Source: Planctomycetota bacterium
GTDB taxonomy: Bacteria > Planctomycetota > UBA1135 > UBA2386
Length of the DNA: 64,000 nt
Assembly: GCA_046290465.1 (NCBI GenBank)
Contig: JBKAGP010000001.1
Span: forward strand, 4,992,001-5,056,000
Reading direction: 5' to 3'
The translations under genes and the position numbers were made by a program. Below are positions 6,474 to 20,294 of this stretch, one piece after another; position 1 is the stretch's first letter; each line of letters opens with the position of its first letter. Below the pieces are notes generated by a model. The model was given only the letters and a program-made list of their open reading frames with translations, searched no databases and was not told the origin of the DNA.

Positions 6474-6869
6474 ATGCGATTCATGGTGATCGACGACGAG
6501 CGGACTGCGCGCACCGAACTGGCGCTGCTGCTCGCACGATGGGGGCGGGTCGAGGAGGCCGAGAGCGCCCAACAGGGACTGACGAAGATCCGCGAGGCGA
6601 TGGCGGCGAGCGATCCGTACTCGCTGGTCTGCGTCGATCTGTGCATGCCCGGCGAGGGCGGTCTGGAGGCGCTGAACGCGATCCGCGACCTCGACGAACG
6701 GTCCGGAACGGACCGCACCGAGGTCGTGATGGTGACGTCGTCCGACGACAAGCACGACGTCATCGAGGCGTTCCGGCAGCAGGCCGATGCCTACCTGGTC
6801 AAGCCGGTCTCGGCGGCGAAGATCGAAGAACTCGTCGCGCGGCTCGGCGGCGGGGAGGGGCAGCGATGA
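6474..6869 (+). CDS. Single-domain response regulator (CheY-like)
   Basis: VIDDE…VDLCMP…VTS…YLVKP. Confidence 0.9.
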   Translation: MRFMVIDDERTARTELALLLARWGRVEEAESAQQGLTKIREAMAASDPYSLVCVDLCMPGEGGLEALNAIRDLDERSGTDRTEVVMVTSSDDKHDVIEAFRQQADAYLVKPVSAAKIEELVARLGGGEGQR

Positions 6870-7429
6870 AGGGCGTCATCTTCGTGATCTTCGAGGAGTT
6901 CATCACCGAGAACTGGGGCGCGGAGACGTTCGAAGACCTGCTCGACGACTGCCCGCACGCCGCCAACGAACCGTTCATCGGGCCGAAGTCGTATCCCGAT
7001 GCGTGGATCGTCGACCTGCTGACGGCGGCCTGCACGCGGCTGAACCTGGCGGCGCCCGACGCGCTGCGCGCATTCGGCAGGTTTGCCTTCGGCGGGCTGA
7101 TCTCGCGCTACCCGAACTTCGTCGACGGCGTCGAGCACCCGCGGCAGCTGCTGCTCGCCGTGCACGACATCATCCACGTCGAGGTCAAGAAGCTGATGGA
7201 GGGCGCGACGCCGCCCAACCTCTACTACGACGACGTCGACGGCGATCCCGACACGCTCACCGTGCACTACGAGTCGGCGCGTGGGCTGTGCGCGCTGATG
7301 GAGGGGTTGCTGGAGGGTGCCGCCGAGCACTTCGGCATCGGCATCGAGCACGAGCAGACCGCGTGCACCCACCAGGGCGCCGCGCGCTGCACGTTCGCGC
7401 TGAAGTTCCTGCAGCCGGTGGCGAGCTGA
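6866..7429 (+). CDS. H-NOX heme NO/O2-binding sensor protein (187 aa)
   Basis: MKGVIF N-terminus, YPD, IHVEV (proximal His), YESAR (YxSxR). ATGA overlap with the preceding gene. Confidence 0.9.
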   Translation: MKGVIFVIFEEFITENWGAETFEDLLDDCPHAANEPFIGPKSYPDAWIVDLLTAACTRLNLAAPDALRAFGRFAFGGLISRYPNFVDGVEHPRQLLLAVHDIIHVEVKKLMEGATPPNLYYDDVDGDPDTLTVHYESARGLCALMEGLLEGAAEHFGIGIEHEQTACTHQGAARCTFALKFLQPVAS

Positions 7430-7430
7430 G

Positions 7431-9110
7431 ATGGACGACGCTCGCTGGGAACGTCGGCTCGAGCGAGAGCGGGCGCGCAACGCGGCGCTCGAGAAGGTCG
7501 TCGAGGACAAGACGCGCGAGCTGTACCTGGCCAACGAACGGCTGCGGCAGCACAACGAAGGCCTCGAGGTCATGGTCGAGGAGCGCACCGCGGACCTGCG
7601 CGCGGCGCTGGAGGCCGCCGAGGCGGCCGGTCGCGCCAAGACCGAGTTCCTGGCGCAGATGAGCCACGAGCTGCGCACGCCGCTGCACGGTCTCAACGGC
7701 ACCATCGACGCGTTGACGCGCACCGAGCTCGGCGCCGAGCAGCGTCGCCTGCTCGACCTGTGTCAGGCTTCGGGCGCCCGCCTGTTGCGCGTGATCGGCG
7801 ACGTGCTCGACTTCTCGCGCATCGAGTCCGGCAAGCTGGAGTTCGAAATGCGGCCGGCCAACGTCGGCGAGATCGTGCTGGCGGCAGCATCGTCGTTCGC
7901 GGCGGCCGCCGAGCAGAAGGGGCTGCGCTTGACGCACGCGTGCGTCGGCGACGACGTCTGGATGCGTGCCGACTCGCACCGGCTGGGGCAGGTGCTCGCC
8001 AAGCTGCTCAGCAACGCCGTCAAGTTCACCGAGCACGGCGAGATCGCCTTGCGCGCCGAGGTGCGGCGAGACGACGGACACCTCACGGTCAGCTGGCAGG
8101 TGCGCGACAGCGGCTGCGGCATGACGCCGGAGGCCGCCGAACGGATCTTCGATGCGTTCCGGCAGGCCGAGGCCGCGACCACGCGGCGGTTCGGCGGCAC
8201 CGGGCTCGGGCTTTCGATCGTGCGCGGCATCGTCGAAGCGATGGGCGGCACGATCCGGGTCGAGACCCAGGTCGGCGTCGGCACGACGTTCACGTTCGAG
8301 ACCCGCCACGAGGCTTGTGCGAGCGAGGCGAACGTCGCGCAGCTGGCGCCGTCGGCGCTCGACCTCGGCGGCAAGAAGGTGCTGGTCGTCGACGACCATC
8401 CGATCAACCGCACGCTGTGCGAGACCATGCTGGCGGGCTGCAACTGCGAGCTGCTGTTCGCCGCGAGCGGCGCCGAGGCGATCCTGCAGGTCGCCCGTAG
8501 CGCGCCGGACCTGGTGCTGATGGACTGCCACATGCCGGGCATGTCCGGCCTCGAAGCGACGCGCGCGATCCGGTCGACGGGCTACCAGAACCCGATCCTG
8601 GCCGTGTCCGCCGATGTCACTACCGACAACGCGACCGCGGTCGTGGCCGCCGGCATGCAGGGCATCCTCGGCAAGCCGTTCCGCCAGTCGGACCTGTTCG
8701 AGTCGATCACCGAGCTGCTGGACGGTAGCGGCCGGTTCGCGGCGGCCGTGCCGGAGGACCTCGACGACGCCCTGCCGCTGTTCGCGCCGGACTCGGCGCT
8801 CGAACTGCTCGGCGGCCACCGCGACATGGTCGCGCGGCTCTGCGAGGTCTTCCTCGAGGAGCTGCCGGGCAACCTCGACAACCTGCGGGCCGGCGTCGCC
8901 GACGCCGATGCCGCGGCACAGGCGCAGTTCGCGCACTCGTTGAAGGGGGCGTCCGGTGTGGTCTGTGCGGTGCGCCTGCGCGACCTGTGCGCCGACCTCG
9001 AGGCGAAGGGCCGCGAGGGGCAGTGCCAGCCGGACCGGCTCGACCGGCTCGAGGCGGTCGCGCGGGAGACCGAGGCGGCGCTGCGCGCGTGGCTCGCAGC
9101 GTGCCCGTAG
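7431..9110 (+). CDS. H-NOX-associated hybrid histidine kinase (coiled coil, HisKA, HATPase, REC, Hpt)
   Basis: MSHELRTPL, SNAVKFT, DSGCGM, GGTGLGL, LMDCHMP and Hpt motif AHSLKGAS; no TM helix. Confidence 0.9.
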   Translation: MDDARWERRLERERARNAALEKVVEDKTRELYLANERLRQHNEGLEVMVEERTADLRAALEAAEAAGRAKTEFLAQMSHELRTPLHGLNGTIDALTRTELGAEQRRLLDLCQASGARLLRVIGDVLDFSRIESGKLEFEMRPANVGEIVLAAASSFAAAAEQKGLRLTHACVGDDVWMRADSHRLGQVLAKLLSNAVKFTEHGEIALRAEVRRDDGHLTVSWQVRDSGCGMTPEAAERIFDAFRQAEAATTRRFGGTGLGLSIVRGIVEAMGGTIRVETQVGVGTTFTFETRHEACASEANVAQLAPSALDLGGKKVLVVDDHPINRTLCETMLAGCNCELLFAASGAEAILQVARSAPDLVLMDCHMPGMSGLEATRAIRSTGYQNPILAVSADVTTDNATAVVAAGMQGILGKPFRQSDLFESITELLDGSGRFAAAVPEDLDDALPLFAPDSALELLGGHRDMVARLCEVFLEELPGNLDNLRAGVADADAAAQAQFAHSLKGASGVVCAVRLRDLCADLEAKGREGQCQPDRLDRLEAVARETEAALRAWLAACP

Positions 9111-10082: not shown

Positions 10083-10748
10083 ATGCAACAACGCAGTCTG
10101 CTTCGCCCGTCCCTTGCCCTCGTCGCCGTGCTCGGCGCCTGCGCCGGCGGCCCCGACCGCCAGGATGCCCCGATCAAGGTCGAGGAGATGATGACCTGGA
10201 TCGAGAAGGTGCACATCGAGGCCGAGCGCGCGCGCGACGCGATCTCCGACTCGTTCGAACGGCTCAACACGCTCGCCGGTGGCCGCTTCGAGGGCGACTC
10301 CGCCGCGGTCGTCTACGCCCGCTTCGTGCAGTCGATCGACGTCGCCGAACAGCAGGCCAAGCGCTACCGCGACGTGGTCGCGCCGATGGTCGCCTCGGCC
10401 GGTCCGGTGTTCGCCACCTGGCAGGCGGACGTCGAGATGATCCAGTCGGAGCGGCTGCGCCAGCGCAGCGAGATGCGCTTCCAGATCGCCAAGGAGCGCT
10501 ACGACGCGATCGCCAAGGTCGCGGTGCCGGCGCAGGAGCAGTACGACCTGTTCGTGCGGGCGCTGCGCGACCACGCGCTGTTCCTCGGCCACGACCTCAA
10601 CGCCGGCTCGATCGACGACATCCAGGAAGAGGTCAAGCTGGTGGCGCAGAACGCGCTGCAGCTGGACCAGAACCTCGAGTCGACGATGGCCGCCTCGCGC
10701 GCCTACGTCGAGCAGTCGTCGCTGCCCGCCGCCGCACCCGGACGCTAG
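10083..10748 (+). CDS. Helical lipoprotein, DUF2959-like (221 aa)
   Basis: Lipobox LGAC; coiled-coil body with the motif LRDHALFLGHDLNAGSI. Confidence 0.65.
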   Translation: MQQRSLLRPSLALVAVLGACAGGPDRQDAPIKVEEMMTWIEKVHIEAERARDAISDSFERLNTLAGGRFEGDSAAVVYARFVQSIDVAEQQAKRYRDVVAPMVASAGPVFATWQADVEMIQSERLRQRSEMRFQIAKERYDAIAKVAVPAQEQYDLFVRALRDHALFLGHDLNAGSIDDIQEEVKLVAQNALQLDQNLESTMAASRAYVEQSSLPAAAPGR

Positions 10749-12977
10749 GTGACCCCGACGCTGCTGATCCTGCTGCTGGCGGCGCTCGCGCTCGCCTTCG
10801 CGGCGACCTGGCAGCGCCAGGCAGAACTGCGTCGGCAGCGCGACGCCGTGCGCGAACGCGCCGAGCTGTCCGCGGCGAGCAGCGGTGCGGCGCCGCTGCA
10901 GCTGCCGGTCGTCGACCTGCAGAAGTGCATGGGCTGCGGCACCTGTGTGCGCGAGTGCCCCGAGGAGGGCGTGCTCGCGCTGGTGCACGGCCAGGCGGCC
11001 GTCGTCAACCCTACCGGCTGCGTCGGCCACGCCCGCTGCGTGTCCGAGTGCCCGGTCGACGCGGTGACGTTGACGCAGGGGGACCTGCAGCAGCGCGACG
11101 ACGTGCCGGTGCTCGACGCCGAACTGCAGGCGGTCGGCAACGACGGCCTGTTCCTGGTCGGGGAGATCACCGCGCGCTCGCTGATCCGCGTTGCGGCCGA
11201 ACAGGGGGTGTCGGCGGGCCGCGCGATCGCGCGGCGGTGCGCCGAGCCGGGGCCGGACGGCGTGCTCGACGCCGTCGTCGTCGGCGCCGGACCGGGCGGC
11301 ATCGCCTGCGCGTTGGCCTGCCGCGAGGCGGGCCTCGACTTCGCGCTGCTCGACCAGGAGCCGTTCGTCGGCGGTGCCGTCGCCAAGTATCCGCGCAAGA
11401 AGCTGGTGCTGACCGACCGGATCGACCTGCCGCTGCACGGCCGCCTGCCGCGCCGCGAGTACGAGAAGGAAGAGCTGGTCGCGCTGTGGCAGGATCTCGG
11501 CGAACGGCACGAGCTGCCGTTCGTCGGCGGCGTCGCGTTCGAACATGTCGAGCGGCAGGACGACGGCACGTTCGTCGTGCATACCGACGCCGGCGGCTAT
11601 CGCGCCCGCAACGTCGTGATCGCGGTCGGCCGACGCGGCCAGCCGCGCCGGCTCGGCGTGCCGGGTGAGGACCAGCCACACGTCGCCTTCGGCCTGCTCG
11701 ACGCCGCCAGCTACGCCAACGCGCACTGCGTGGTCGTCGGCGGCGGCGACAGTGCGGTCGAGACCGCGATCGCGCTGGCCGAGCAGCCGGGCAACGACGT
11801 GACGCTGGTCTATCGCCAGGAGGCCTTCTTCCGGCTGCGCAGCAAGAACCGCAAGCGGCTCGAGCAGCAGGTCGCCAGCGGATCCCTGCAGACGATGCTG
11901 GCGACCGACGTGCAGGCGATCGGCGCCGACCACGTCGAGGTCGCGCAGCGGCAGGAGGCCGGCGGCCCGGTGGCGGTGCAGGTGCGCGCCGACCATGTGT
12001 TCGTGCTCGCTGGCGGGGTGCCGCCGTTCGAGCAGCTGAAGCGCAGCGGCGTCTCGTTCGACGCCGCGCTGCATCCAGAGGAGGCCGCGCCGGCGGACGA
12101 CGGCGCGCGCAGCAGCCTGCTGTGGGCGGTCGGCTGTGGCCTGCTGCTGGCGGCGGCGACGCTGGCGTTCGTGCTCTGGCACGCCGACTACTACCTGCAG
12201 GCCTCGGGGCTGCGCGCGGCGCATCCCAAGCACGCGTTCCTGCGGCCGGATCACGGCCTCGGGCTGTGGTTCGGGCTGCTCGCGTCCGGCGCGATGCTGG
12301 CCAACCTCGCCTACCTGCTGCGGCGGCAGCAGCTGTGGGGCGTGCGCTTCGGTCGCCTGTCGACGTGGATGAACGTGCACGTCGCGACCGGCGTGATCGC
12401 CGTGCTGCTGGTGATGCTGCACGGCTCGATGGCGCCGCGCACGACACCCGGTGGCTATGCGTTCTGGGGTCTGGCGGTGCTGCTGCTGACCGGCGCGATC
12501 GGGCGCTGGTTCTACGCCTGGCTGCCGCGGTCCGCGAACGGCCGCGAGCGTCGCCTCGACGAGCTGCGGCAGGACCTGCACGAGCGCAAGCGGCGGCGGG
12601 CGGACGATCCGTTCGCGGCGGCGGCGCGCGCCGAGACGCTCGCGCTGATCGAACGGCGGCAGTGGCACGGCAGCTGGTTCGGTCGCGCGCTGGCGCTGGT
12701 CGGCCTGCAGTGGGACCTGTGGCGCACGCGGCGTCGCATCCGCGATCTCGGTCGCGAGCACGGCGCCGATGCCGCGTCGCTGGCCCGCGAACTGCACGAG
12801 GCGCGGCAGGCGCACGGCACCGCGGTGGCGGTGGCGCACCTCGAGGACCTGCGCGCGCTGCTCGGCACGTGGCGCTGGCTGCACCGCTGGATCGCGCTGC
12901 TGACGGTGCTGCTGGTGGTGGTGCACGCGGTGATCGCGATCGGCCGCGGCGTGTTCCGCGACGGAGGCGGCCTGTGA
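10749..12977 (+). CDS. Membrane-anchored 2x[4Fe-4S] ferredoxin / FAD-NAD(P)H oxidoreductase / cytochrome-b-like membrane domain fusion
   Basis: N-terminal TM; CMGCGTCVRECP and CVGHARCVSECP; GAGPGG (FAD); VVGGGDSA followed by YRQ..F.R (NADPH-type); C-terminal TM helices with His in WMNVH, MLHG, WLHRW and VVHA. Confidence 0.85.
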   Translation: MTPTLLILLLAALALAFAATWQRQAELRRQRDAVRERAELSAASSGAAPLQLPVVDLQKCMGCGTCVRECPEEGVLALVHGQAAVVNPTGCVGHARCVSECPVDAVTLTQGDLQQRDDVPVLDAELQAVGNDGLFLVGEITARSLIRVAAEQGVSAGRAIARRCAEPGPDGVLDAVVVGAGPGGIACALACREAGLDFALLDQEPFVGGAVAKYPRKKLVLTDRIDLPLHGRLPRREYEKEELVALWQDLGERHELPFVGGVAFEHVERQDDGTFVVHTDAGGYRARNVVIAVGRRGQPRRLGVPGEDQPHVAFGLLDAASYANAHCVVVGGGDSAVETAIALAEQPGNDVTLVYRQEAFFRLRSKNRKRLEQQVASGSLQTMLATDVQAIGADHVEVAQRQEAGGPVAVQVRADHVFVLAGGVPPFEQLKRSGVSFDAALHPEEAAPADDGARSSLLWAVGCGLLLAAATLAFVLWHADYYLQASGLRAAHPKHAFLRPDHGLGLWFGLLASGAMLANLAYLLRRQQLWGVRFGRLSTWMNVHVATGVIAVLLVMLHGSMAPRTTPGGYAFWGLAVLLLTGAIGRWFYAWLPRSANGRERRLDELRQDLHERKRRRADDPFAAAARAETLALIERRQWHGSWFGRALALVGLQWDLWRTRRRIRDLGREHGADAASLARELHEARQAHGTAVAVAHLEDLRALLGTWRWLHRWIALLTVLLVVVHAVIAIGRGVFRDGGGL

Positions 12978-15016
12978 ACCTCAAGGCGCGCTCGATCGTC
13001 GTCGGCGTGGTCTCGGCCGTGCTGGTGCTGACGCTGACGATGGCGGCTGCCGAACGGCAGTCGCCGGGACCGATCTCGACCGTGCACGGCCGCCTCGCCG
13101 AGCTCGACGGAGGGGCTTCGTGTTCGAGCTGCCACGGCGGTTGGTTCGGCGACATGCGCGCGTCCTGCATCGAGTGCCACGAGGAGATCGCCGCCCAACT
13201 CGAGCACGGCAACGGCCTGCACGGCGTGCTCGGCAAGGAGGCGGCGCACCAGTGCGCGACGTGCCACAGCGAGCACCACGGCGAGACGTTCCAGCAGGTC
13301 AACCGGCTGGCGTTCGCCCAGGCCGGCGTGCCCGACCCGGAGGCGTTCGACCACCGCATGATCGGCTTCGACCTCTCCGGTGCGCACGACCAGCTGAAGT
13401 GCGACGCGTGCCACGAGCACGCCTACGCCGAGGTATTGCCGGAGAACCAGCAGCGCTTCCTCGGCCTGCAGCGCGACTGCGGCTCGTGCCACGCCAACCC
13501 GCACGGAGGGCGCATGCAGATGACCTGTGTCACCTGCCATACGCAGTCGGACTTCACGCAGCGGTTCGTGTCGAAGCACGACCGCTGGCTGCGGCTCGAG
13601 GGGGCGCACGGCGGCGTCGACTGCCGTTCGTGCCACCAGGCCGGGAGCGCGCACGCGCTCGAGGCGCTGCGGCCGGGGGAGCTGTCAGCGCGCGGTTGCG
13701 CCGACTGCCACGAGTCGCCGCACGTCGCGGCGTTCGTCGCCGGCAACGGCGGCTGCGCGAGCTGCCACCAGCAGGAGTTCGAGCACTTCGACGACGACCG
13801 TCTGGCGCTGACCGCCGAACAGCACGCGCACAGCGGCTTCGCGCTCGGCGCGCCGCACGACCGGCTCGCGTGCACGGCGTGCCACGACGCGGCGGGCACG
13901 TTCGCCGAACGGCACCCCGGGCGCGCGCCGACCGACTGCCGCGCGTGCCACCAGGATCCGCACGGCGGCCAGTTCGACGGCAGCCCGTTGGCCGAACAGG
14001 ACTGCGTCAGCTGCCACGAACGCACCCACTTCGCACCGCACCGCTTCGACGAGGCGATGCACGCGCGCACGGCGCTGCCGCTCGACGGCCGGCACGCCGA
14101 GCAGCGCTGTGAGGCATGCCACGAGGTGCGGCCGCCCGATTCGGTCCGGCAGTTCCGCGGCACGCCGTCCCGATGTGAGAGCTGCCACGGCGATGCGCAC
14201 GACGACGCGTTCGCGGCGCATCGCCAGCGGCTGGCCGCGCACCCGCGCGGCGCCTGCGCGCAGTGCCACGACACCGACGCCTGGACGAGTCTCGACCACG
14301 CGCGCTTCGACCACGCCGACTGGACCGGCTTCGGCCTCGACGGGGCGCACGCGCAGATCGAGTGCACCGACTGCCATGCGCGCACCGACACCCCGGACGC
14401 GTTGGGCCGGCGCTTCGGCCGGATCCCGGAGCACGACGGCACCGATGCGGCGGGTGACTGCGCGCGCTGCCACGGCGACCCGCACGAGGGCATCTTCGCG
14501 CGCGAGGGTGCCCCGCAGCAGATCGACGGCCGCGGCGGATGCCTGCGCTGCCACGACACCGCGTCGTTCCGCGCGCTGCCGCACGGCTTCGATCACAAGG
14601 CGTTCGCGGGCTTCGAGCTGACCGGCAAGCACGGCAAGCTCGACTGCTCGGCGTGCCACCAGGCGCTCGACGAGGCGACCAGCACCGGGCGGACGTGGGG
14701 CAAGGCCAAGGGGCGGGCGTGCGCCGACTGCCACCAGGATCCGCACGTCGGGCAGTTTGCGCGGTTCGGCAAGACCGACTGCCATCGCTGCCACAAGAGC
14801 GCCAACACGTTCGCGACGCTGTCGTTCCGCCACAACCTGGACTCGCGGTTCCGACTGGGCGAGCAGCACCGCAAGGTCGCCTGCAGTCTCTGCCACAAAC
14901 CCGAGACGAAAGATGGGCACACCTTCGTCCGATACAAGCCGCTGCCGACCAAGTGCGTCGACTGCCACGGTCGGGAAGAAGGAGGAGCGCCGAAACGGAG
15001 ACGGAGGCGCGAGTGA
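12974..15016 (+). CDS. Multiheme cytochrome c, 23 CxxCH motifs (680 aa), c7/c3-like triheme repeats
   Basis: 23 CxxCH counted; hydrophobic signal/anchor; repeating FDH..GF.L.G.H units; GTGA overlap with the preceding gene. Confidence 0.92.
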   Translation: MNLKARSIVVGVVSAVLVLTLTMAAAERQSPGPISTVHGRLAELDGGASCSSCHGGWFGDMRASCIECHEEIAAQLEHGNGLHGVLGKEAAHQCATCHSEHHGETFQQVNRLAFAQAGVPDPEAFDHRMIGFDLSGAHDQLKCDACHEHAYAEVLPENQQRFLGLQRDCGSCHANPHGGRMQMTCVTCHTQSDFTQRFVSKHDRWLRLEGAHGGVDCRSCHQAGSAHALEALRPGELSARGCADCHESPHVAAFVAGNGGCASCHQQEFEHFDDDRLALTAEQHAHSGFALGAPHDRLACTACHDAAGTFAERHPGRAPTDCRACHQDPHGGQFDGSPLAEQDCVSCHERTHFAPHRFDEAMHARTALPLDGRHAEQRCEACHEVRPPDSVRQFRGTPSRCESCHGDAHDDAFAAHRQRLAAHPRGACAQCHDTDAWTSLDHARFDHADWTGFGLDGAHAQIECTDCHARTDTPDALGRRFGRIPEHDGTDAAGDCARCHGDPHEGIFAREGAPQQIDGRGGCLRCHDTASFRALPHGFDHKAFAGFELTGKHGKLDCSACHQALDEATSTGRTWGKAKGRACADCHQDPHVGQFARFGKTDCHRCHKSANTFATLSFRHNLDSRFRLGEQHRKVACSLCHKPETKDGHTFVRYKPLPTKCVDCHGREEGGAPKRRRRRE

Positions 15017-16686
15017 GCACGACAAGGCATCTGGGCGCGTCGCTGGCCGCGCTGCATCTGGTCTGCGGCGGACTGGCCGCGCAAGGAGAGCGCTTCGAGC
15101 GCCTCGACCTGCGCGTCTCGGCACCGCGACCGAACGGGCAGTGTGTGATCGACCGCGGCAAGCGCGAGAAGGTCGAGGTCGGCGATCGCGTGGTGCTGTC
15201 GCCGCGCGGCGGCCAGCCGTTGACCGGTCGCGTGCTGCAGGTCGAGGACCGCACCGCGCTGGTGCAGCTGCTCGACCCCAAGGCTTCGGTGGCACGCGGC
15301 ACGCGTGGCCACGTGCTGATCCCGCGGACGCGCAAGCAGCAGGCCGGGCCCGATCCGGCCGATCCGGCGGTCGAGCCGCAGCCGCCGACCGGTGAGCCGG
15401 GCGCGCAGGATCCGCCGGGCGACGAGGTCTGGAGGCCGGGCATGCCGTTGCTCGGCCGTCACCGGGCGCCGCGGCCGAACGAACGCGACGCCCAGTTGCG
15501 CGGCCGCCTCTACGGCTCCAGCAACCTGGTCCGCACGCTCGACTCGTTCTCGCAGTCGTACGCGCGCGCCGGTGCCGACGTCGACGTCAACAACATCGAT
15601 GGCGACGGCGGCCGGCTGCGCTTCCACGGCGAGTTCGTGCACAGCGAAGAGGTCTCCGGCAACACCGGCAGCGACCTGCGCATCTACGAGCTCAGCTACG
15701 CGCACGGCGGCACGCGCTTCGACCCGTGGCGCTGGCAGGTCGGCCGCTTCCTGCAGCAGGACATGCCCGAGTTCGGGCTGCTCGACGGCATCGAGGTCGG
15801 CTTCCGCAGCGAGCACGGCGACCGCTTCGGCGCCAGCGTCGGCTACCTGCCCGAGCTCGACGACGACCTCGACAGCCTCGCCGACCTGCAGCTCGCGGCG
15901 TGGTACGTGTTCAACCCGGACGTGTCCGAACGGATCTCGTACGCGATCGGTTACCAGAAGACCTGGCACCGTTGGGACGCGGACCGCGACCTGATCGTCG
16001 CCAAGGCCCGCTATCTGCCGCACAGCGGTTGGGACGTGTCGTCGGCGATCTGGGTCGACATCTACGACAACGACGACAACCTCAAGGACGAGGCGTTCGA
16101 GTTCACGCGCGCCAACCTGTTCGCGACGCGTCGCTGGCAGGACGAGGGCGGCGTCGAGCTGTTCTACGACCACGAGGAGTATCCGGAGCTGCTGCGCAAC
16201 GAGACGCCGCAGACGCTGTTGCCGCAGACGTTGATCGGGGCGCACGTCGATCGCGTGTCGGCGCACCTGTGGACGGGTGGCGGCGACCGGGCGCAGTGGT
16301 TCACGCGCACGACCGGCTGGGTCGACGAGGAGGACGAGGGCTTCGCGTTCGAGCTCGGTGGTCGGCAGGACGACGTGCTCGGTTCGCGCACGCGCTCGGG
16401 TCTGGCGTTGTTCCACGTGAACGCGCAGACCAGCAACGTCACCGGCGTGCGTATCGAGCACGGCGGCGACTACCAGTTCGGTCGCCTCGACCTGCTCTAC
16501 GAACTCGGCTTCGTGCACTTCGACGACCAACCGTCCGATCGCAGCGAGTTGCTGCAGCACCGCTTCGCCGCGCTGGTCTCGACCGGCATGGGGTCGGGTT
16601 GGGACGCGACGTTCACTGGCGACGTCACCGTGTGGGACGAGGAGATCTCGTTCGGCGTCGGCATCTACCTGCAAAAGCTGTTCTGA
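15013..16686 (+). CDS. Putative outer-membrane beta-barrel (porin) with an N-terminal soluble domain (557 aa)
   Basis: Signal peptide ending LAAQ; Pro-rich linker; alternating amphipathic strands rich in aromatic/Gly residues; C-terminal GVGIYLQKLF ending in Phe. Confidence 0.75.
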   Translation: MSTTRHLGASLAALHLVCGGLAAQGERFERLDLRVSAPRPNGQCVIDRGKREKVEVGDRVVLSPRGGQPLTGRVLQVEDRTALVQLLDPKASVARGTRGHVLIPRTRKQQAGPDPADPAVEPQPPTGEPGAQDPPGDEVWRPGMPLLGRHRAPRPNERDAQLRGRLYGSSNLVRTLDSFSQSYARAGADVDVNNIDGDGGRLRFHGEFVHSEEVSGNTGSDLRIYELSYAHGGTRFDPWRWQVGRFLQQDMPEFGLLDGIEVGFRSEHGDRFGASVGYLPELDDDLDSLADLQLAAWYVFNPDVSERISYAIGYQKTWHRWDADRDLIVAKARYLPHSGWDVSSAIWVDIYDNDDNLKDEAFEFTRANLFATRRWQDEGGVELFYDHEEYPELLRNETPQTLLPQTLIGAHVDRVSAHLWTGGGDRAQWFTRTTGWVDEEDEGFAFELGGRQDDVLGSRTRSGLALFHVNAQTSNVTGVRIEHGGDYQFGRLDLLYELGFVHFDDQPSDRSELLQHRFAALVSTGMGSGWDATFTGDVTVWDEEISFGVGIYLQKLF

Positions 16687-16694
16687 GGGCCATC

Positions 16695-17348
16695 ATGAAG
16701 ACCAGACGTTTCGGCAAGTGGGCCGCGGCCCTCGTCATGTTGGTCGCCGTCGTGGCGTGCACGATCAGCAACCCGCGCCGCGTCGAGCAGCATCGCTGGT
16801 GGTCGGGCTTCGGCCTGGTGGTGCCGCACGAGTCGTTCCCGGCCGACTGCAGCCTGTGCCACGTCGGCTCGTCGTGGAACAAGCTGGTCGCCGACTTCCG
16901 CTTCGACCACGGCGCGCGCACCGGCGTCGCGCTGCACGGCGCGCACGACCAGGCGGCGTGCCTGCGCTGCCACAACGACCGCGGCCCGGTGTCGGCCTAC
17001 AACGCCAAGGGCTGCGTCGGCTGCCACGAGGACGTGCACTACGGCGAACTCGGCCAGGACTGCGCGCGCTGCCACGACGAGGTGCTGTGGCGCGTGCCCA
17101 ACACGCGGGTCGCGCACATCCACACGCGCCTGCCGCTGATCGGCGCGCACATGCAGGTCGCCTGCCACCGCTGCCACGCCGGCGCGACGGTCACCAACTT
17201 CCGACCGACCGATCCCGACTGCAGCAGCTGCCACCTCAACGAGGCGATCGCGACCACCAACCCGCCGCACCAGGGGCTCGGCTGGACGCAGCAGCGCTGC
17301 GACCGCTGCCACCAGCCGACGGCCTGGCGGCCGGCGCAGGTGCGGTGA
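16695..17348 (+). CDS. Heptaheme cytochrome c lipoprotein (217 aa)
   Basis: 7 CxxCH; lipobox-like VVAC; same FDH…G.H repeat as the 23-heme protein. Confidence 0.9.
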   Translation: MKTRRFGKWAAALVMLVAVVACTISNPRRVEQHRWWSGFGLVVPHESFPADCSLCHVGSSWNKLVADFRFDHGARTGVALHGAHDQAACLRCHNDRGPVSAYNAKGCVGCHEDVHYGELGQDCARCHDEVLWRVPNTRVAHIHTRLPLIGAHMQVACHRCHAGATVTNFRPTDPDCSSCHLNEAIATTNPPHQGLGWTQQRCDRCHQPTAWRPAQVR

Positions 17349-17475
17349 CCTGCGATCCCACACGGAGACCACGGCCCGGTCCCATCTGGAGACGGGCCAC
17401 TCACGGAATGACACAGGAGTGTCGATGACCCCCGAACTCGGAAGGAACGATGCGCTCCCCACGCGGAGTTCGATC

Positions 17476-20274
17476 ATGAAGACTCCTGTACGCAGGTTGG
17501 CGGTCCGTGCCGCGTCCCTGGCCATGGCCGGGGCGGTGCTGGTGCTGTCGATGTTCCCCGCTTCTTGCGTCGACCAGCAGGGGCGCGAGGCGTCCGTGGC
17601 GTCGGCCGAGTCCTGCATGCGCTGCCACAACGGCTCGCTGCACGACGACTACGCCGGACCCGGCCTCGAGAACCCGCACCCGTTCCCCGGTGATGCCGAG
17701 ATGCTGCGCTGCACGGCGTGCCACGGCGGCAACCCCAATGGCGCCGACGCGGCCACCAGCCACGTGCCGCCGCCGCCGTCGATCGGGGACCGTGACTTCC
17801 AGGATCAGAACGCGCAGGCGTACTTCAACAAGCTGACGCTCGCGGGCATCGACAAGGTCGACGACTACGAGGTCGACGGCGTCACCTACACCGGCCTGCA
17901 GTACCTGCAGTTCCTCAACCCGTCCGACCTGCGCGTCACCAGCATCGGCCAGGGCTGCGGCGAGTGCCACCAGCCGCACGCGACCGCGTCGATCCGTTCG
18001 CCGATCGGCAGCGAGATGGGCATCTTCTCGGGCGCCTTCTACGCGGTCGGCATGGCCAACGCGATCGCCGCGCACCAGGGACTGTTCGAGGACACGGCCG
18101 CCGACTACGGCTGGCGGGCGGTCGTCGATCCGGCCCACGTGCACGATCCCAACGCCGACGGCAAGGTCGGCGAACTGCTCGAGGCGCCGGTCTGGAGCTC
18201 GCGCGAGGACCAGGGCCCGGACTTCCTGTTCCGCAACCAGGACTTCGTCGTCGCCAACCTGGTCAACGACGTCAACGCCGACGGCTCGGTGGTCAGCGGC
18301 TCGCGGCTGGCCAAGCTCTACCAGGAACAGGTCGCGTTCACCTGTGGCGACTGCCACCTCGGCAGCAGCGGCGCCAACAACCGCTACGGCGACTTCCGGC
18401 CGTCGGGCTGCGCGGCGTGCCACATGCCGTACAGCCTCGACGGCCGCAGCCGCAGCCAGGACCCGAACGTGCCGAAGTTCGAGCCGCTCGACCCGGACGA
18501 CATCGACGACCCCGAGCGCGCCCACGTGCGTTCGCACCGGATCCGTTCGGTGGCGCGCACGCTGACCAACGGCACGCAGGTCGAGGGCATCGACGACTAC
18601 ACCTGCGCCGGCTGCCACCAGGGCAGCAACCGCATGGTCATGCAGTACTGGGGCATCCGCCTCGACCAGAACCAGGACGTTCGCCGCGGCCACCAGTACC
18701 CGGCCAACCCGGTCGACTTCGAGACCACGCGCAACGACACGCGCCTGTTCGACCCGCAGGTCGGCAACAACACGTTCAACGGGCGCAACCACCGTCAGTA
18801 CCTCCTGATGGAGGACTACGACGGCGACGGCCGTGACGACACGCCGGCCGACGTGCACTACGACGCGGGCATGGGCTGCGTCGACTGCCACGGCACCGTA
18901 GACCTGCACGGCGACGTCGCCGCGGCCAACAACGGCGACATCGTCAGCCGCATGACGCACGCCGTGACGATCAAGTGCGAGGACTGCCACGGCTCGGCGA
19001 CGGCCTACGCGCCGACCACGGTCGGCGAGAACTACGACGGCGAGACCGTCACGCTCGCGGTCGACAGCGCCGGCAACCCGCTGCGCCACGTCGAGGTGGA
19101 CTCGAACGGCGACTACTGGCTGACCAGCAAGGTCGACGGCCGCCGCCACTACGTCTCGCAGACGCTCGACGTGATCGTCGACAACGGCCGGACCAACCCG
19201 GTCACCGGCACGCCGATCTACACGCAGCACGGCTCGTTCGCGATGGGCCGCGACGACAACGACCCGGCGACCGGCATCGGTTCGCAGCAGACCGGCAGCC
19301 CGCACGCCGGCTTCAGCCACATGGACTCGATGCACTGCGCGTCGTGCCACAGCGCCTGGAGCAACTCGTGCGTCGGCTGCCACCTCGAAGGCGAGTACAA
19401 CGAGGGCAACAACTTCAGCAACATCACCGGCGAACGGATCGCGTTCCGCGAGCGCTTCGCCGAGTTCGTCTACCAGTCGCCGATCCCGTTCACGCTCGGC
19501 ATCGGGCCGGACAACGACATCCGCACGACCGCGGCCAACACCAAGGTGTTCTTCCGCTACCGCGACATCAACGGCGACCGCACGCCGGTGTTCGCGTTCT
19601 CGGACCGCAACGGCCAGGGCGGCAACACGGTCGCGCGGCCGACGCCGTCGCTGGGCCACAACGCGCTGATGGCGCACTCGATCCGCGGCCGCGTCAGCGC
19701 GACCAACGAAGGGCCGCGCTCGTGCGTCGCGTGCCACCTGACGAACGACGCGATCACCAACTACGGCTCGCAATACGCGGCGTTCCGGACGGCGCTCTAC
19801 GCCAACGACTACGGCAACCTCGACTACAACCTGCTCAGGCAGCACATCGGGCAGAACCCGGGTAACCAGCTCGACTCGCCGTTCTTCGTGCACATGGTCG
19901 CGGGCCTCGGCACCGGCCTCTACCTGTTCGACCAGAACGGCGCCGCGCAGAACCCGCTCGACGACAACGACGATCGCTACGGCAGCGACGGCGCTGCGCC
20001 GAACACCTACTTCAACCCGGCCGACGTGCGTTACGACCTCGACCGCGTGGTCGAGACCAACGGTGTCGCCAACGGCTCGAGCAGCATCCCGATGAACCAG
20101 CCGTTCCTCGGTCCGCTGCGCCGCGACGGGGCGCTCGACCCCAACATGACCGGGCCGCTCGGCACCACGCTGGCGCTGCGCCTGGCTGACCCGGCGACCG
20201 GCATCGTGCTCAACAGCTGGGTGGACGCGGACCGCACGGTCAAGGGCGACGCGAGCAACGTGATCGATCCGTAG
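17476..20274 (+). CDS. Large 11-heme cytochrome c, probable lipoprotein (932 aa)
   Basis: 11 CxxCH counted; signal peptide ending PASC; acidic, Asn/Asp/Gly-rich inter-heme regions. Confidence 0.9.
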   Translation: MKTPVRRLAVRAASLAMAGAVLVLSMFPASCVDQQGREASVASAESCMRCHNGSLHDDYAGPGLENPHPFPGDAEMLRCTACHGGNPNGADAATSHVPPPPSIGDRDFQDQNAQAYFNKLTLAGIDKVDDYEVDGVTYTGLQYLQFLNPSDLRVTSIGQGCGECHQPHATASIRSPIGSEMGIFSGAFYAVGMANAIAAHQGLFEDTAADYGWRAVVDPAHVHDPNADGKVGELLEAPVWSSREDQGPDFLFRNQDFVVANLVNDVNADGSVVSGSRLAKLYQEQVAFTCGDCHLGSSGANNRYGDFRPSGCAACHMPYSLDGRSRSQDPNVPKFEPLDPDDIDDPERAHVRSHRIRSVARTLTNGTQVEGIDDYTCAGCHQGSNRMVMQYWGIRLDQNQDVRRGHQYPANPVDFETTRNDTRLFDPQVGNNTFNGRNHRQYLLMEDYDGDGRDDTPADVHYDAGMGCVDCHGTVDLHGDVAAANNGDIVSRMTHAVTIKCEDCHGSATAYAPTTVGENYDGETVTLAVDSAGNPLRHVEVDSNGDYWLTSKVDGRRHYVSQTLDVIVDNGRTNPVTGTPIYTQHGSFAMGRDDNDPATGIGSQQTGSPHAGFSHMDSMHCASCHSAWSNSCVGCHLEGEYNEGNNFSNITGERIAFRERFAEFVYQSPIPFTLGIGPDNDIRTTAANTKVFFRYRDINGDRTPVFAFSDRNGQGGNTVARPTPSLGHNALMAHSIRGRVSATNEGPRSCVACHLTNDAITNYGSQYAAFRTALYANDYGNLDYNLLRQHIGQNPGNQLDSPFFVHMVAGLGTGLYLFDQNGAAQNPLDDNDDRYGSDGAAPNTYFNPADVRYDLDRVVETNGVANGSSSIPMNQPFLGPLRRDGALDPNMTGPLGTTLALRLADPATGIVLNSWVDADRTVKGDASNVIDP

Positions 20275-20294
20275 CGCCGGCTACGGTCGATCAC
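20260..20294. terminator. Strong hairpin at the end of the cytochrome operon, between convergent genes
   Basis: GTGATCGA-T-CCGTAGC [GCCG] GCTACGG-TCGATCAC; no clear U-tract. Confidence 0.5.

Follow-up and report, generated by a model that had tools for sequence, protein, structure and literature searches.

A planctomycete gene cluster with a flavoprotein-membrane protein fusion as a candidate NADPH-fed route to surface cytochromes

How electrons could pass from the cytoplasm to the cell surface is the question raised by six co-oriented genes on contig JBKAGP010000001.1 of a Planctomycetota bacterium (assembly GCA_046290465.1). The window, i.e. the whole stretch of 64,000 nucleotides analysed, covers contig positions 4,992,001 to 5,056,000, and the cluster occupies its positions 10083 to 20274 on the + strand. 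To our knowledge, all characterised porin-cytochrome conduits are quinol-fed. For the present cluster the answer that we consider on balance probable is one trans-envelope wire, which would lead from cytoplasmic NADPH to surface cytochromes with no obligatory quinone step. The basis on hand consists of motifs, their conservation, modelled folds, co-inheritance and gene fusions; from it we infer cofactor binding, protein contacts, surface location and direction of flow. The six genes are as follows.

10083-10748, + strand: gene 1, 221 amino acids, DUF2959 protein, predicted lipoprotein
10749-12977, + strand: gene 2, 742-residue fusion of N-terminal membrane anchor, ferredoxin, flavoprotein and membrane domain
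12974-15016, + strand: gene 3, 680 amino acids, 23-heme cytochrome c with N-terminal signal or anchor
15013-16686, + strand: gene 4, 557 amino acids, ends in F, predicted outer-membrane beta-barrel
16695-17348, + strand: gene 5, 217 amino acids, 7-heme predicted lipoprotein
17476-20274 (start may be 17419), + strand: gene 6, 932 or 951 amino acids, 11-heme predicted lipoprotein

A preliminary description of this DNA had reported the co-oriented genes, their close junctions and their heme motifs, all of which were reproduced from the frames and from shuffled sequences. The stop codon TAG of gene 1 directly precedes the GTG of gene 2 (10748/10749), GTGA joins the next genes at 12974 and 15013, and a gap of 8 bases follows 16686. 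Genes 3, 5 and 6 contain 23, 7 and 11 CxxCH motifs (41 in total), against maxima of 4, 2 and 2 in 1000 shuffles of each protein. Third-position GC content is 0.92-0.97 across all six genes; a frame artefact was ruled out by this codon pattern and by homologs.

The feed of such a wire would lie in gene 2. Its structural model (pLDDT 88, pTM 0.70) starts with an N-terminal helix, followed by the two soluble domains and a membrane domain made of helices. Pfam places a two-cluster ferredoxin at residues 53-102 (Fer4_10 above cut-off) and a pyridine nucleotide-disulphide oxidoreductase at 176-443. The three domains are:

10899-11078, + strand: ferredoxin domain, about residues 51-110, with C60/C63/C66/C70 and C91/H94/C97/C101
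11109-12068, + strand: flavoprotein domain, about residues 121-440, with GAGPGG at 179, GGGDSA and R356/R362
12111-12974, + strand: membrane domain, residues 455-742, built of five helices and carrying TGAIG as well as two W-x3-H-x13-H motifs

Two iron-sulphur (Fe-S) clusters and motifs for flavin adenine dinucleotide (FAD) and NAD(P)H had been assigned to this protein beforehand. The flavoprotein and the first cluster hold up, but the second site, C91-x2-H94-x2-C97-x3-C101, offers three Cys only. All seven Fe-S Cys are invariant in 117/117 close homologs, and position 94 is H in 92 of these, I in 14 and V in 11. Since this position is never Cys, the second cluster is more likely [3Fe-4S] or His-ligated than an all-Cys [4Fe-4S] cluster.

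The nearest solved relatives of the flavoprotein domain are ferredoxin-NADP reductases (FNR) with the fold of thioredoxin reductase (TrxR), and YpdA. The helix segment GxxxxGE...A..QG, which we take to be the normal end of the TrxR/FNR fold, is found here at residues 133-163, and a GE..LI motif lies upstream of the first GxGxxG in 69/82 homologs (one regular expression). The Pyr_redox_3 match starts at residue 176 and spans profile positions 1-287 of 305; solved FNR/TrxR chains align over about 265 of their 320-335 residues. Because the fold-terminal motif precedes GxGxxG and solved chains align only partway, the domain is read as a circularly permuted TrxR fold. A preference for NADPH is suggested by GGGDSA together with R356/R362; this R-x5-R pair, typical of NADPH binding, is kept in 73/82 homologs. 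As in FNR-type enzymes, the CxxC of TrxR is missing (absent in 80/80 homologs scored). Thioredoxin reductase activity was rejected on this ground and by the TrxR model (61 bits, cut-off 343), and an identity as YpdA by 138.8 bits against a cut-off of 339.9.

The preliminary description's His-containing membrane domain is borne out by conservation. Its two motifs are W540-H544-H558 and W708-H712-H726. Among the close homologs H544 and H558 are kept in 117/117 and H712 and H726 in 116/117, and all four His are invariant in 71/71 divergent stand-alone relatives, whose consensus reads SGxxG where gene 2 has TGAIG. The domain is predicted to bind two b hemes; we infer their pairing and sidedness as H544/H712 for the inner and H558/H726 for the outer heme. 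PF01794, the ferric reductase domain model, scores 16.4 bits on gene 2 (cut-off 28) and matches 23 of the 71 stand-alone relatives at E <=0.01, with a best value of 1e-4. A cluster of 301-residue proteins from Pseudomonadota matches the domain at a template-modelling (TM) score of 0.51, no more than a lead towards the reference proteins of the conduit PCC3 discussed below. The family counts 4539 representatives at E <=0.001, and the domain was found in 88/301 Planctomycetota genomes and in 37/121 genomes of a second phylum, that of a Myxococcales genome.

Whether the flavoprotein belongs to the membrane domain is tested more fairly in loci picked by the membrane domain alone, because loci with the full-length fusion hold the flavoprotein by construction. 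The ferredoxin-flavoprotein lies in the same cluster in 19/20 such loci of Planctomycetota (20 of about 29 matches of 120-246 bits) and in 17/20 of the second phylum (20 of 46 places). It thus accompanies the membrane domain in 36/40 loci, be it before it, after it, downstream of the barrel or divergently oriented. These 40 loci represent the stronger matches; weaker ones may belong to other systems. In total, 89 loci with a membrane domain were fetched, of which 84 have the flavoprotein. A cytochrome of at least 17 hemes is encoded in 81 of these 84, and a homolog of the barrel (two profile iterations) in 82, both misses being cut contigs. The genes are accordingly conserved together.

Fusions join the same two modules in both orders. 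The flavoprotein-membrane order occurs in 43 rows forming two groups (41 from Planctomycetota and a separate pair), and the reverse order in 5 rows forming one group with support 99. These were mapped on a quick tree of 75 of 82 flavoproteins, the other 7 being left out since their first Fe-S pattern was unmatched. By helix count, both orders place the Fe-S/FAD part in the cytoplasm. An Elusimicrobiota protein is likewise fused. Because of the co-occurrence in independently picked loci and the fusion in both orders, the earlier suggestion that the flavoprotein feeds the membrane domain is supported.

Gene 2 is matched by 827 proteins at E <=1e-20 among 8000 scored, and gene order 2, 3, 4, 5 is kept in all 17 relative loci compared. 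Relatives that carry a name belong to Planctomycetota, in agreement with the assignment of the host. The cultured Emticicia oligotrophica DSM 17448 carries a split form on a plasmid, where cytochromes of 23 and 40 hemes, ccsA and a homolog of the barrel are also encoded. Relatives of gene 2 were not found among the viral contigs searched, a metagenome scan with a split membrane protein as query found nothing, and a search for shorter homologs gave mostly contig-end fragments. Three loci (L114:9529-11532, L115:9390-11477 and L116:9634-11793) lack the FAD domain in their fusion, which links the membrane domain to a two-cluster ferredoxin; two of these loci adjoin 30- and 31-heme cytochromes. Loci L117-L123 combine a related flavoprotein domain with different Fe-S domains in one protein (in L121 Fer4_5, NapH-like), and neither a multiheme cytochrome nor the four-His membrane domain was seen in the stretches fetched. 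This module is reused outside heme-wire clusters.

Several points weigh against a direct NADPH feed. No solved structure is convincingly related to the membrane domain (the best profile match covers 29 residues of cytochrome b6, E 0.005), and the matches listed by Foldseek for the gene 2 model were flavoproteins only. The domain occurs without this flavoprotein in 5/89 loci, and also in the conduit PCC3 as described. Related loci are not independent, and kinship inflates the co-occurrence counts. The cluster is patchy: full-length gene 2 was found in 20/40 relatives and in 4/14 of the same genus, the genomes being 69-95% complete. The genome makes menaquinone, the lipoproteins may face either side, and the same membrane signature has been modelled as quinone-active (PMC5566968).

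The last point leads to an alternative that we regard as unlikely but as deserving attention. The membrane domain would be a quinone-reactive cytochrome b that mediates electron exchange between menaquinone and the heme chain; the flavoprotein would form a second port, as NADPH:quinone oxidoreductase or priming input. Apart from the modelling of the PCC3/PCC4 membrane protein in this sense (PMC5566968), the futalosine menaquinone genes of the host, weak Ni_hydr_CYTB matches in 17 of the 71 stand-alone relatives, the description of PCC3 with four genes and no flavoprotein, and the ubiquinone bound by MsrQ (PMC12525009) are in its favour. In MsrQ, however, electrons come from a cytosolic NADH oxidoreductase and the bound ubiquinone is not the donor (PMC12525009), so that by analogy it may serve as a precedent for cytosolic NAD(P)H input to a heme membrane protein. 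A quinol donor would hardly explain why the NAD(P)H module is kept in 36/40 loci and fused both ways, and four His on two helices would be enough for direct crossing. A NapC/CymA family gene was not found in this genome (one contig, 94% complete). The wording "without quinone" of the preliminary description is nevertheless too firm, as a quinone site on the membrane domain is possible.

Beyond the inner membrane, a direct NADPH-fed wire would continue in gene 3, which, judged by its N-terminal hydrophobic stretch, is predicted to be periplasmic. It has 29.6 residues per heme, its homologs in Planctomycetota loci contain 17, 20, 23 or 26 motifs, and comparison with solved structures gave marginal matches only. 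For gene 4, the model (pLDDT 79) has a small N-terminal beta domain followed by 22 consecutive strands and no plug. Its best Foldseek matches are outer-membrane barrels, with low TM scores that indicate the fold class only; scans with Pfam and further family models gave no match above cut-off. The modelling thus agrees with the beta-barrel proposed in the preliminary description.

Lipoprotein character had been claimed for genes 5 and 6. A lipobox-like Cys is kept in most of the homologs displayed, which favours this claim and adds gene 1 as a third predicted lipoprotein, although the calls were made by eye and not by SignalP. Gene 1 matches PF11172 (DUF2959; 74.6 bits, cut-off 26.8) and has neither a heme motif nor another redox motif. 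It accompanies the 7-heme form of gene 5 in 19/20 fused loci (the remaining locus is cut by a contig end) and absent from all loci carrying a longer gene 5. Its role is likely that of an assembly factor or spacer.

Gene 5 corresponds to the conserved N-terminal portion of a family whose longer members have 10-25 or more hemes, and the surface end of the cluster seems to vary with this length. Within the set L021-L096, all loci with a gene 5 of 7 or 10 hemes (25/25) contain gene 6, and none of those with 13 or more hemes (0/36) does; these counts are inflated by kinship, and some of the long-gene-5 loci are cut downstream. The divergent loci L073 and L074, which have a weakly similar 10-heme protein and no gene 6, are exceptions, and the rule fails in the second phylum, in whose 20 loci gene 6 was never seen. 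Even so, gene 6 seems to replace the long tail of gene 5, which would put it at the far end of the chain. It has 85 residues per heme, an enzyme-like spacing, has no solved relative, and is likely a terminal, substrate-facing module. Across loci, heme counts mostly step by three. In locus L089, three consecutive genes encode proteins resembling gene 5, which carry 38, 17 and at least 56 heme motifs.

The enzyme-like spacing of gene 6 could also mean that electrons leave the cytoplasm through gene 2 but end inside the envelope. The barrel would then admit soluble sulphur, selenium or metal species, the lipoprotein cytochromes would face the periplasm, and gene 6 would be a periplasmic reductase. 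In keeping with this, gene 6 weakly resembles ExtM (63 bits, cut-off 800) of a selenite/tellurite operon, and, according to the title of a cited paper, the Geobacter porin ExtI serves in selenite uptake. We nevertheless consider this arrangement improbable: relatives of gene 5 reach 22-56 hemes without gene 6, which fits outward extension better, and the barrel has no plug and invariably stands beside both cytochromes.

Taken as a wire to the surface, the cluster would work as follows. NADPH would reduce the FAD of gene 2, which would pass electrons to the two Fe-S clusters of the ferredoxin domain and from there to the inner and then the outer b heme. The outer heme would deliver them to the 23-heme chain of gene 3. 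They may cross the 22-strand barrel via the 7-heme lipoprotein, situated in or at the barrel, and would finally reach the 11-heme terminal protein.

The NADP couple lies at -320 mV, and a membrane potential of about 150 mV aids an electron leaving the negative cytoplasm, so that inward reduction of NADP+ would need a donor near -470 mV. On these potentials, outward flow from NADPH is strongly favoured, at a cost of one charge per electron. Operation in either direction, as suggested in the preliminary description, is thus unlikely by these textbook potentials. Since outward crossing spends membrane potential, it would not be an energy-conserving respiratory step; the likely use is to supply a strong reductant outside or to drain surplus NADPH, not respiration. 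Such a wire could reach acceptors too negative for menaquinol. That the wire instead works inward, generating NAD(P)H with electrons of an external donor (mineral, partner cell or electrode), is very improbable given the donor near -470 mV required against about 150 mV and the heme-copper oxidases of the host (two genes and a weaker third match), which are in keeping with ordinary respiration, even if FNR-type flavoproteins are generally known to be reversible, a distant membrane-domain relative in Alteromonas adjoins a periplasmic hydrogenase, and PCC3 occurs and is expressed in iron oxidisers (PMC5566968; 10.1101/2025.02.27.639646). The Alteromonas relative, on an A. macleodii plasmid (L055:5839-12558), has a 2Fe-2S-binding oxidoreductase on one side and a 7-heme cytochrome on the other; the hydrogenase genes follow just downstream, and no barrel is annotated there.

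Is this a known system? The preliminary description had compared the cluster with MtrCAB and Geobacter Pcc and had not recognised it as a characterised system. No characterised complex matches, but the closer systems PCC3 and Ptd/PCC4 had been missed. In MtrCAB and Geobacter Pcc/Ext, too, the porin stands between a periplasmic and an outer multiheme cytochrome. Membership in MtrCAB/Ext was rejected by scores of 51.6 (cut-off 192) for MtrA/DmsE and 26.7 (209) for MtrC, by the missing barrel match and by the ExtM value given above.

By layout and membrane signature the cluster would work like PCC3. Both have a five-helix inner-membrane protein with two W-x3-H-x13-H motifs and (S/T)GxxG (PMC5566968), a periplasmic cytochrome with few residues per heme (21-27 hemes in PCC3, 23 in the predicted one here), a porin (here the 22-strand barrel) and an outer cytochrome, whose location is a prediction here; PCC3 of Leptothrix cholodnii combines 24 hemes, 22 strands and 22 hemes. 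The periplasmic cytochromes of PCC3, with 21, 24 and 27 hemes (PMC9900912), also step by three, as do the 17/20/23/26 of the planctomycete gene 3 homologs. PCC3, however, is described from Proteobacteria as a set of four genes whose membrane protein stands alone and has about 300 residues, in contrast to the 742-residue fusion. Its extracellular cytochrome has 10 or more hemes. Here the outer part would consist of 7- and 11-heme predicted lipoproteins, and the cluster has the DUF2959 lipoprotein in addition. Quinone use is assumed for PCC3 and electron uptake is its favoured role, in contrast to the ferredoxin-flavoprotein input found here; the function of PCC3 itself is unverified according to the available text of two sources (10.1101/2025.02.27.639646; PMC13386937). 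We do not file the cluster as PCC3 because it departs from the four-gene stand-alone form, a distinction drawn from descriptions of the reference proteins only.

Ptd/PCC4 comprises a porin, multiheme cytochromes, an FAD/NAD(P) oxidoreductase, a two-cluster Fe-S protein and a ferric-reductase-like membrane protein (10.1101/2023.11.21.568154), the latter with the same signature as that of PCC3 (PMC5566968). Oxidoreductase, membrane protein and porin thus occur together as in our cluster, matched as parts and by description. In Ptd/PCC4, however, they are separate genes, and the cytochromes have 4, 5 and 10 hemes, none of them extracellular, instead of 23, 7 and 11. It also has a cNMP-binding ferredoxin, whereas a Pfam scan of the six genes found no cNMP domain. 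Ptd/PCC4 is reported in Planctomycetes, with its function stated as unknown and no NADPH- or NADH-to-surface path proposed in the available parts of the sources (10.1101/2023.11.21.568154; PMC5566968).

The input side resembles the superfamily of NADPH oxidases and ferric reductases, including Fre-MsrQ, in which electrons pass from cytosolic NAD(P)H via flavin and a His-ligated membrane heme to an outside acceptor (PMC12525009); the conserved membrane His of gene 2, seen in homologs and model, are in line with this. Heme membrane proteins fed by NAD(P)H are known or proposed at the inner membrane in MsrQ-like systems (PMC8238504). NADPH oxidases and ferric reductases, however, use a C-terminal dehydrogenase of the FNR fold or a flavin reductase and end at the periplasm or at O2/Fe(III), whereas gene 2 has an N-terminal TrxR-fold domain with Fe-S clusters, followed by a 41-heme chain with a barrel. 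TrxR-fold FNR and YpdA/Bdr share the fold, the dinucleotide motifs and the lack of CxxC with the gene 2 flavoprotein, which differs in being permuted, ferredoxin-fused and membrane-anchored. In the literature covered, mostly open-access and with image-only supplements outside, neither this fusion nor an NADPH-fed porin-cytochrome conduit was found described; this includes the available parts of PMC7399161, PMC8258643, 10.64898/2026.05.27.727921, 10.1101/2022.03.26.485925, PMC13608581 and PMC13510729.

Since the PCC3 layout and the Ptd/PCC4 parts, the latter as separate genes, have already been described, the cluster is a variant of the porin-cytochrome kind and not a new kind; what sets it apart is the dedicated, predicted NADPH input. 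Quinol feeding is generally known to limit how reducing exported electrons can be. An NADPH-fed wire, if real, would reach more negative acceptors and serve a non-respiratory purpose. A wider reading, which we hold tentatively and consider a little too bold to be called probable, is that of a widespread envelope-spanning machine resembling NADPH oxidase, with a potential-driven single-polypeptide input, a wire built in three-heme steps, a barrel, and swappable surface ends that would be either a long heme tail or an 11-heme enzyme. If true, Planctomycetota, Myxococcota and Bacteroidota that respire oxygen would possess a quinone-free low-potential route of extracellular reduction, and this would point to the membrane protein of PCC3/PCC4 as a gate that passes electrons directly across the membrane. 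In the natural fusion, a single expressible polypeptide holds both the donor site and the heme domain, and the role of that membrane protein becomes testable.

Two related clusters were observed in the same genome. The second copy (L021:8872-16533; contig about 4844900-4852500) has a fused gene 2 that is 44% identical, a 23-heme protein, a barrel homolog and a 22-heme lipoprotein, and is without gene 1 and gene 6; with 23 and 22 hemes flanking the barrel homolog it resembles PCC3 of L. cholodnii. The third (L023:4060-19998; contig about 2614000-2631200) is closer to Ptd/PCC4. It holds a stand-alone membrane-domain relative, a cNMP-ferredoxin, a 15-heme protein with an FHA domain, a 17-heme protein, a flavoprotein that carries FHA and 2Fe-2S, and an LVIVD-repeat protein with 10 hemes and a weak resemblance to gene 6. 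Its FHA domains hint at phospho-control.

In the window, a response regulator, a hybrid kinase and an intervening protein are encoded at 6474-9110 (+ strand), 1 kb upstream of the cluster. The protein at about 6866-7429 presumably resembles a heme-NO binding domain. A gene of the metallo-beta-lactamase fold on the opposite strand separates these regulator and kinase genes from the cluster. At its other end, a long inverted repeat at 20260-20294 (15-base arms with one bulge, by eye) overlaps the stop of gene 6 and is a possible terminator.

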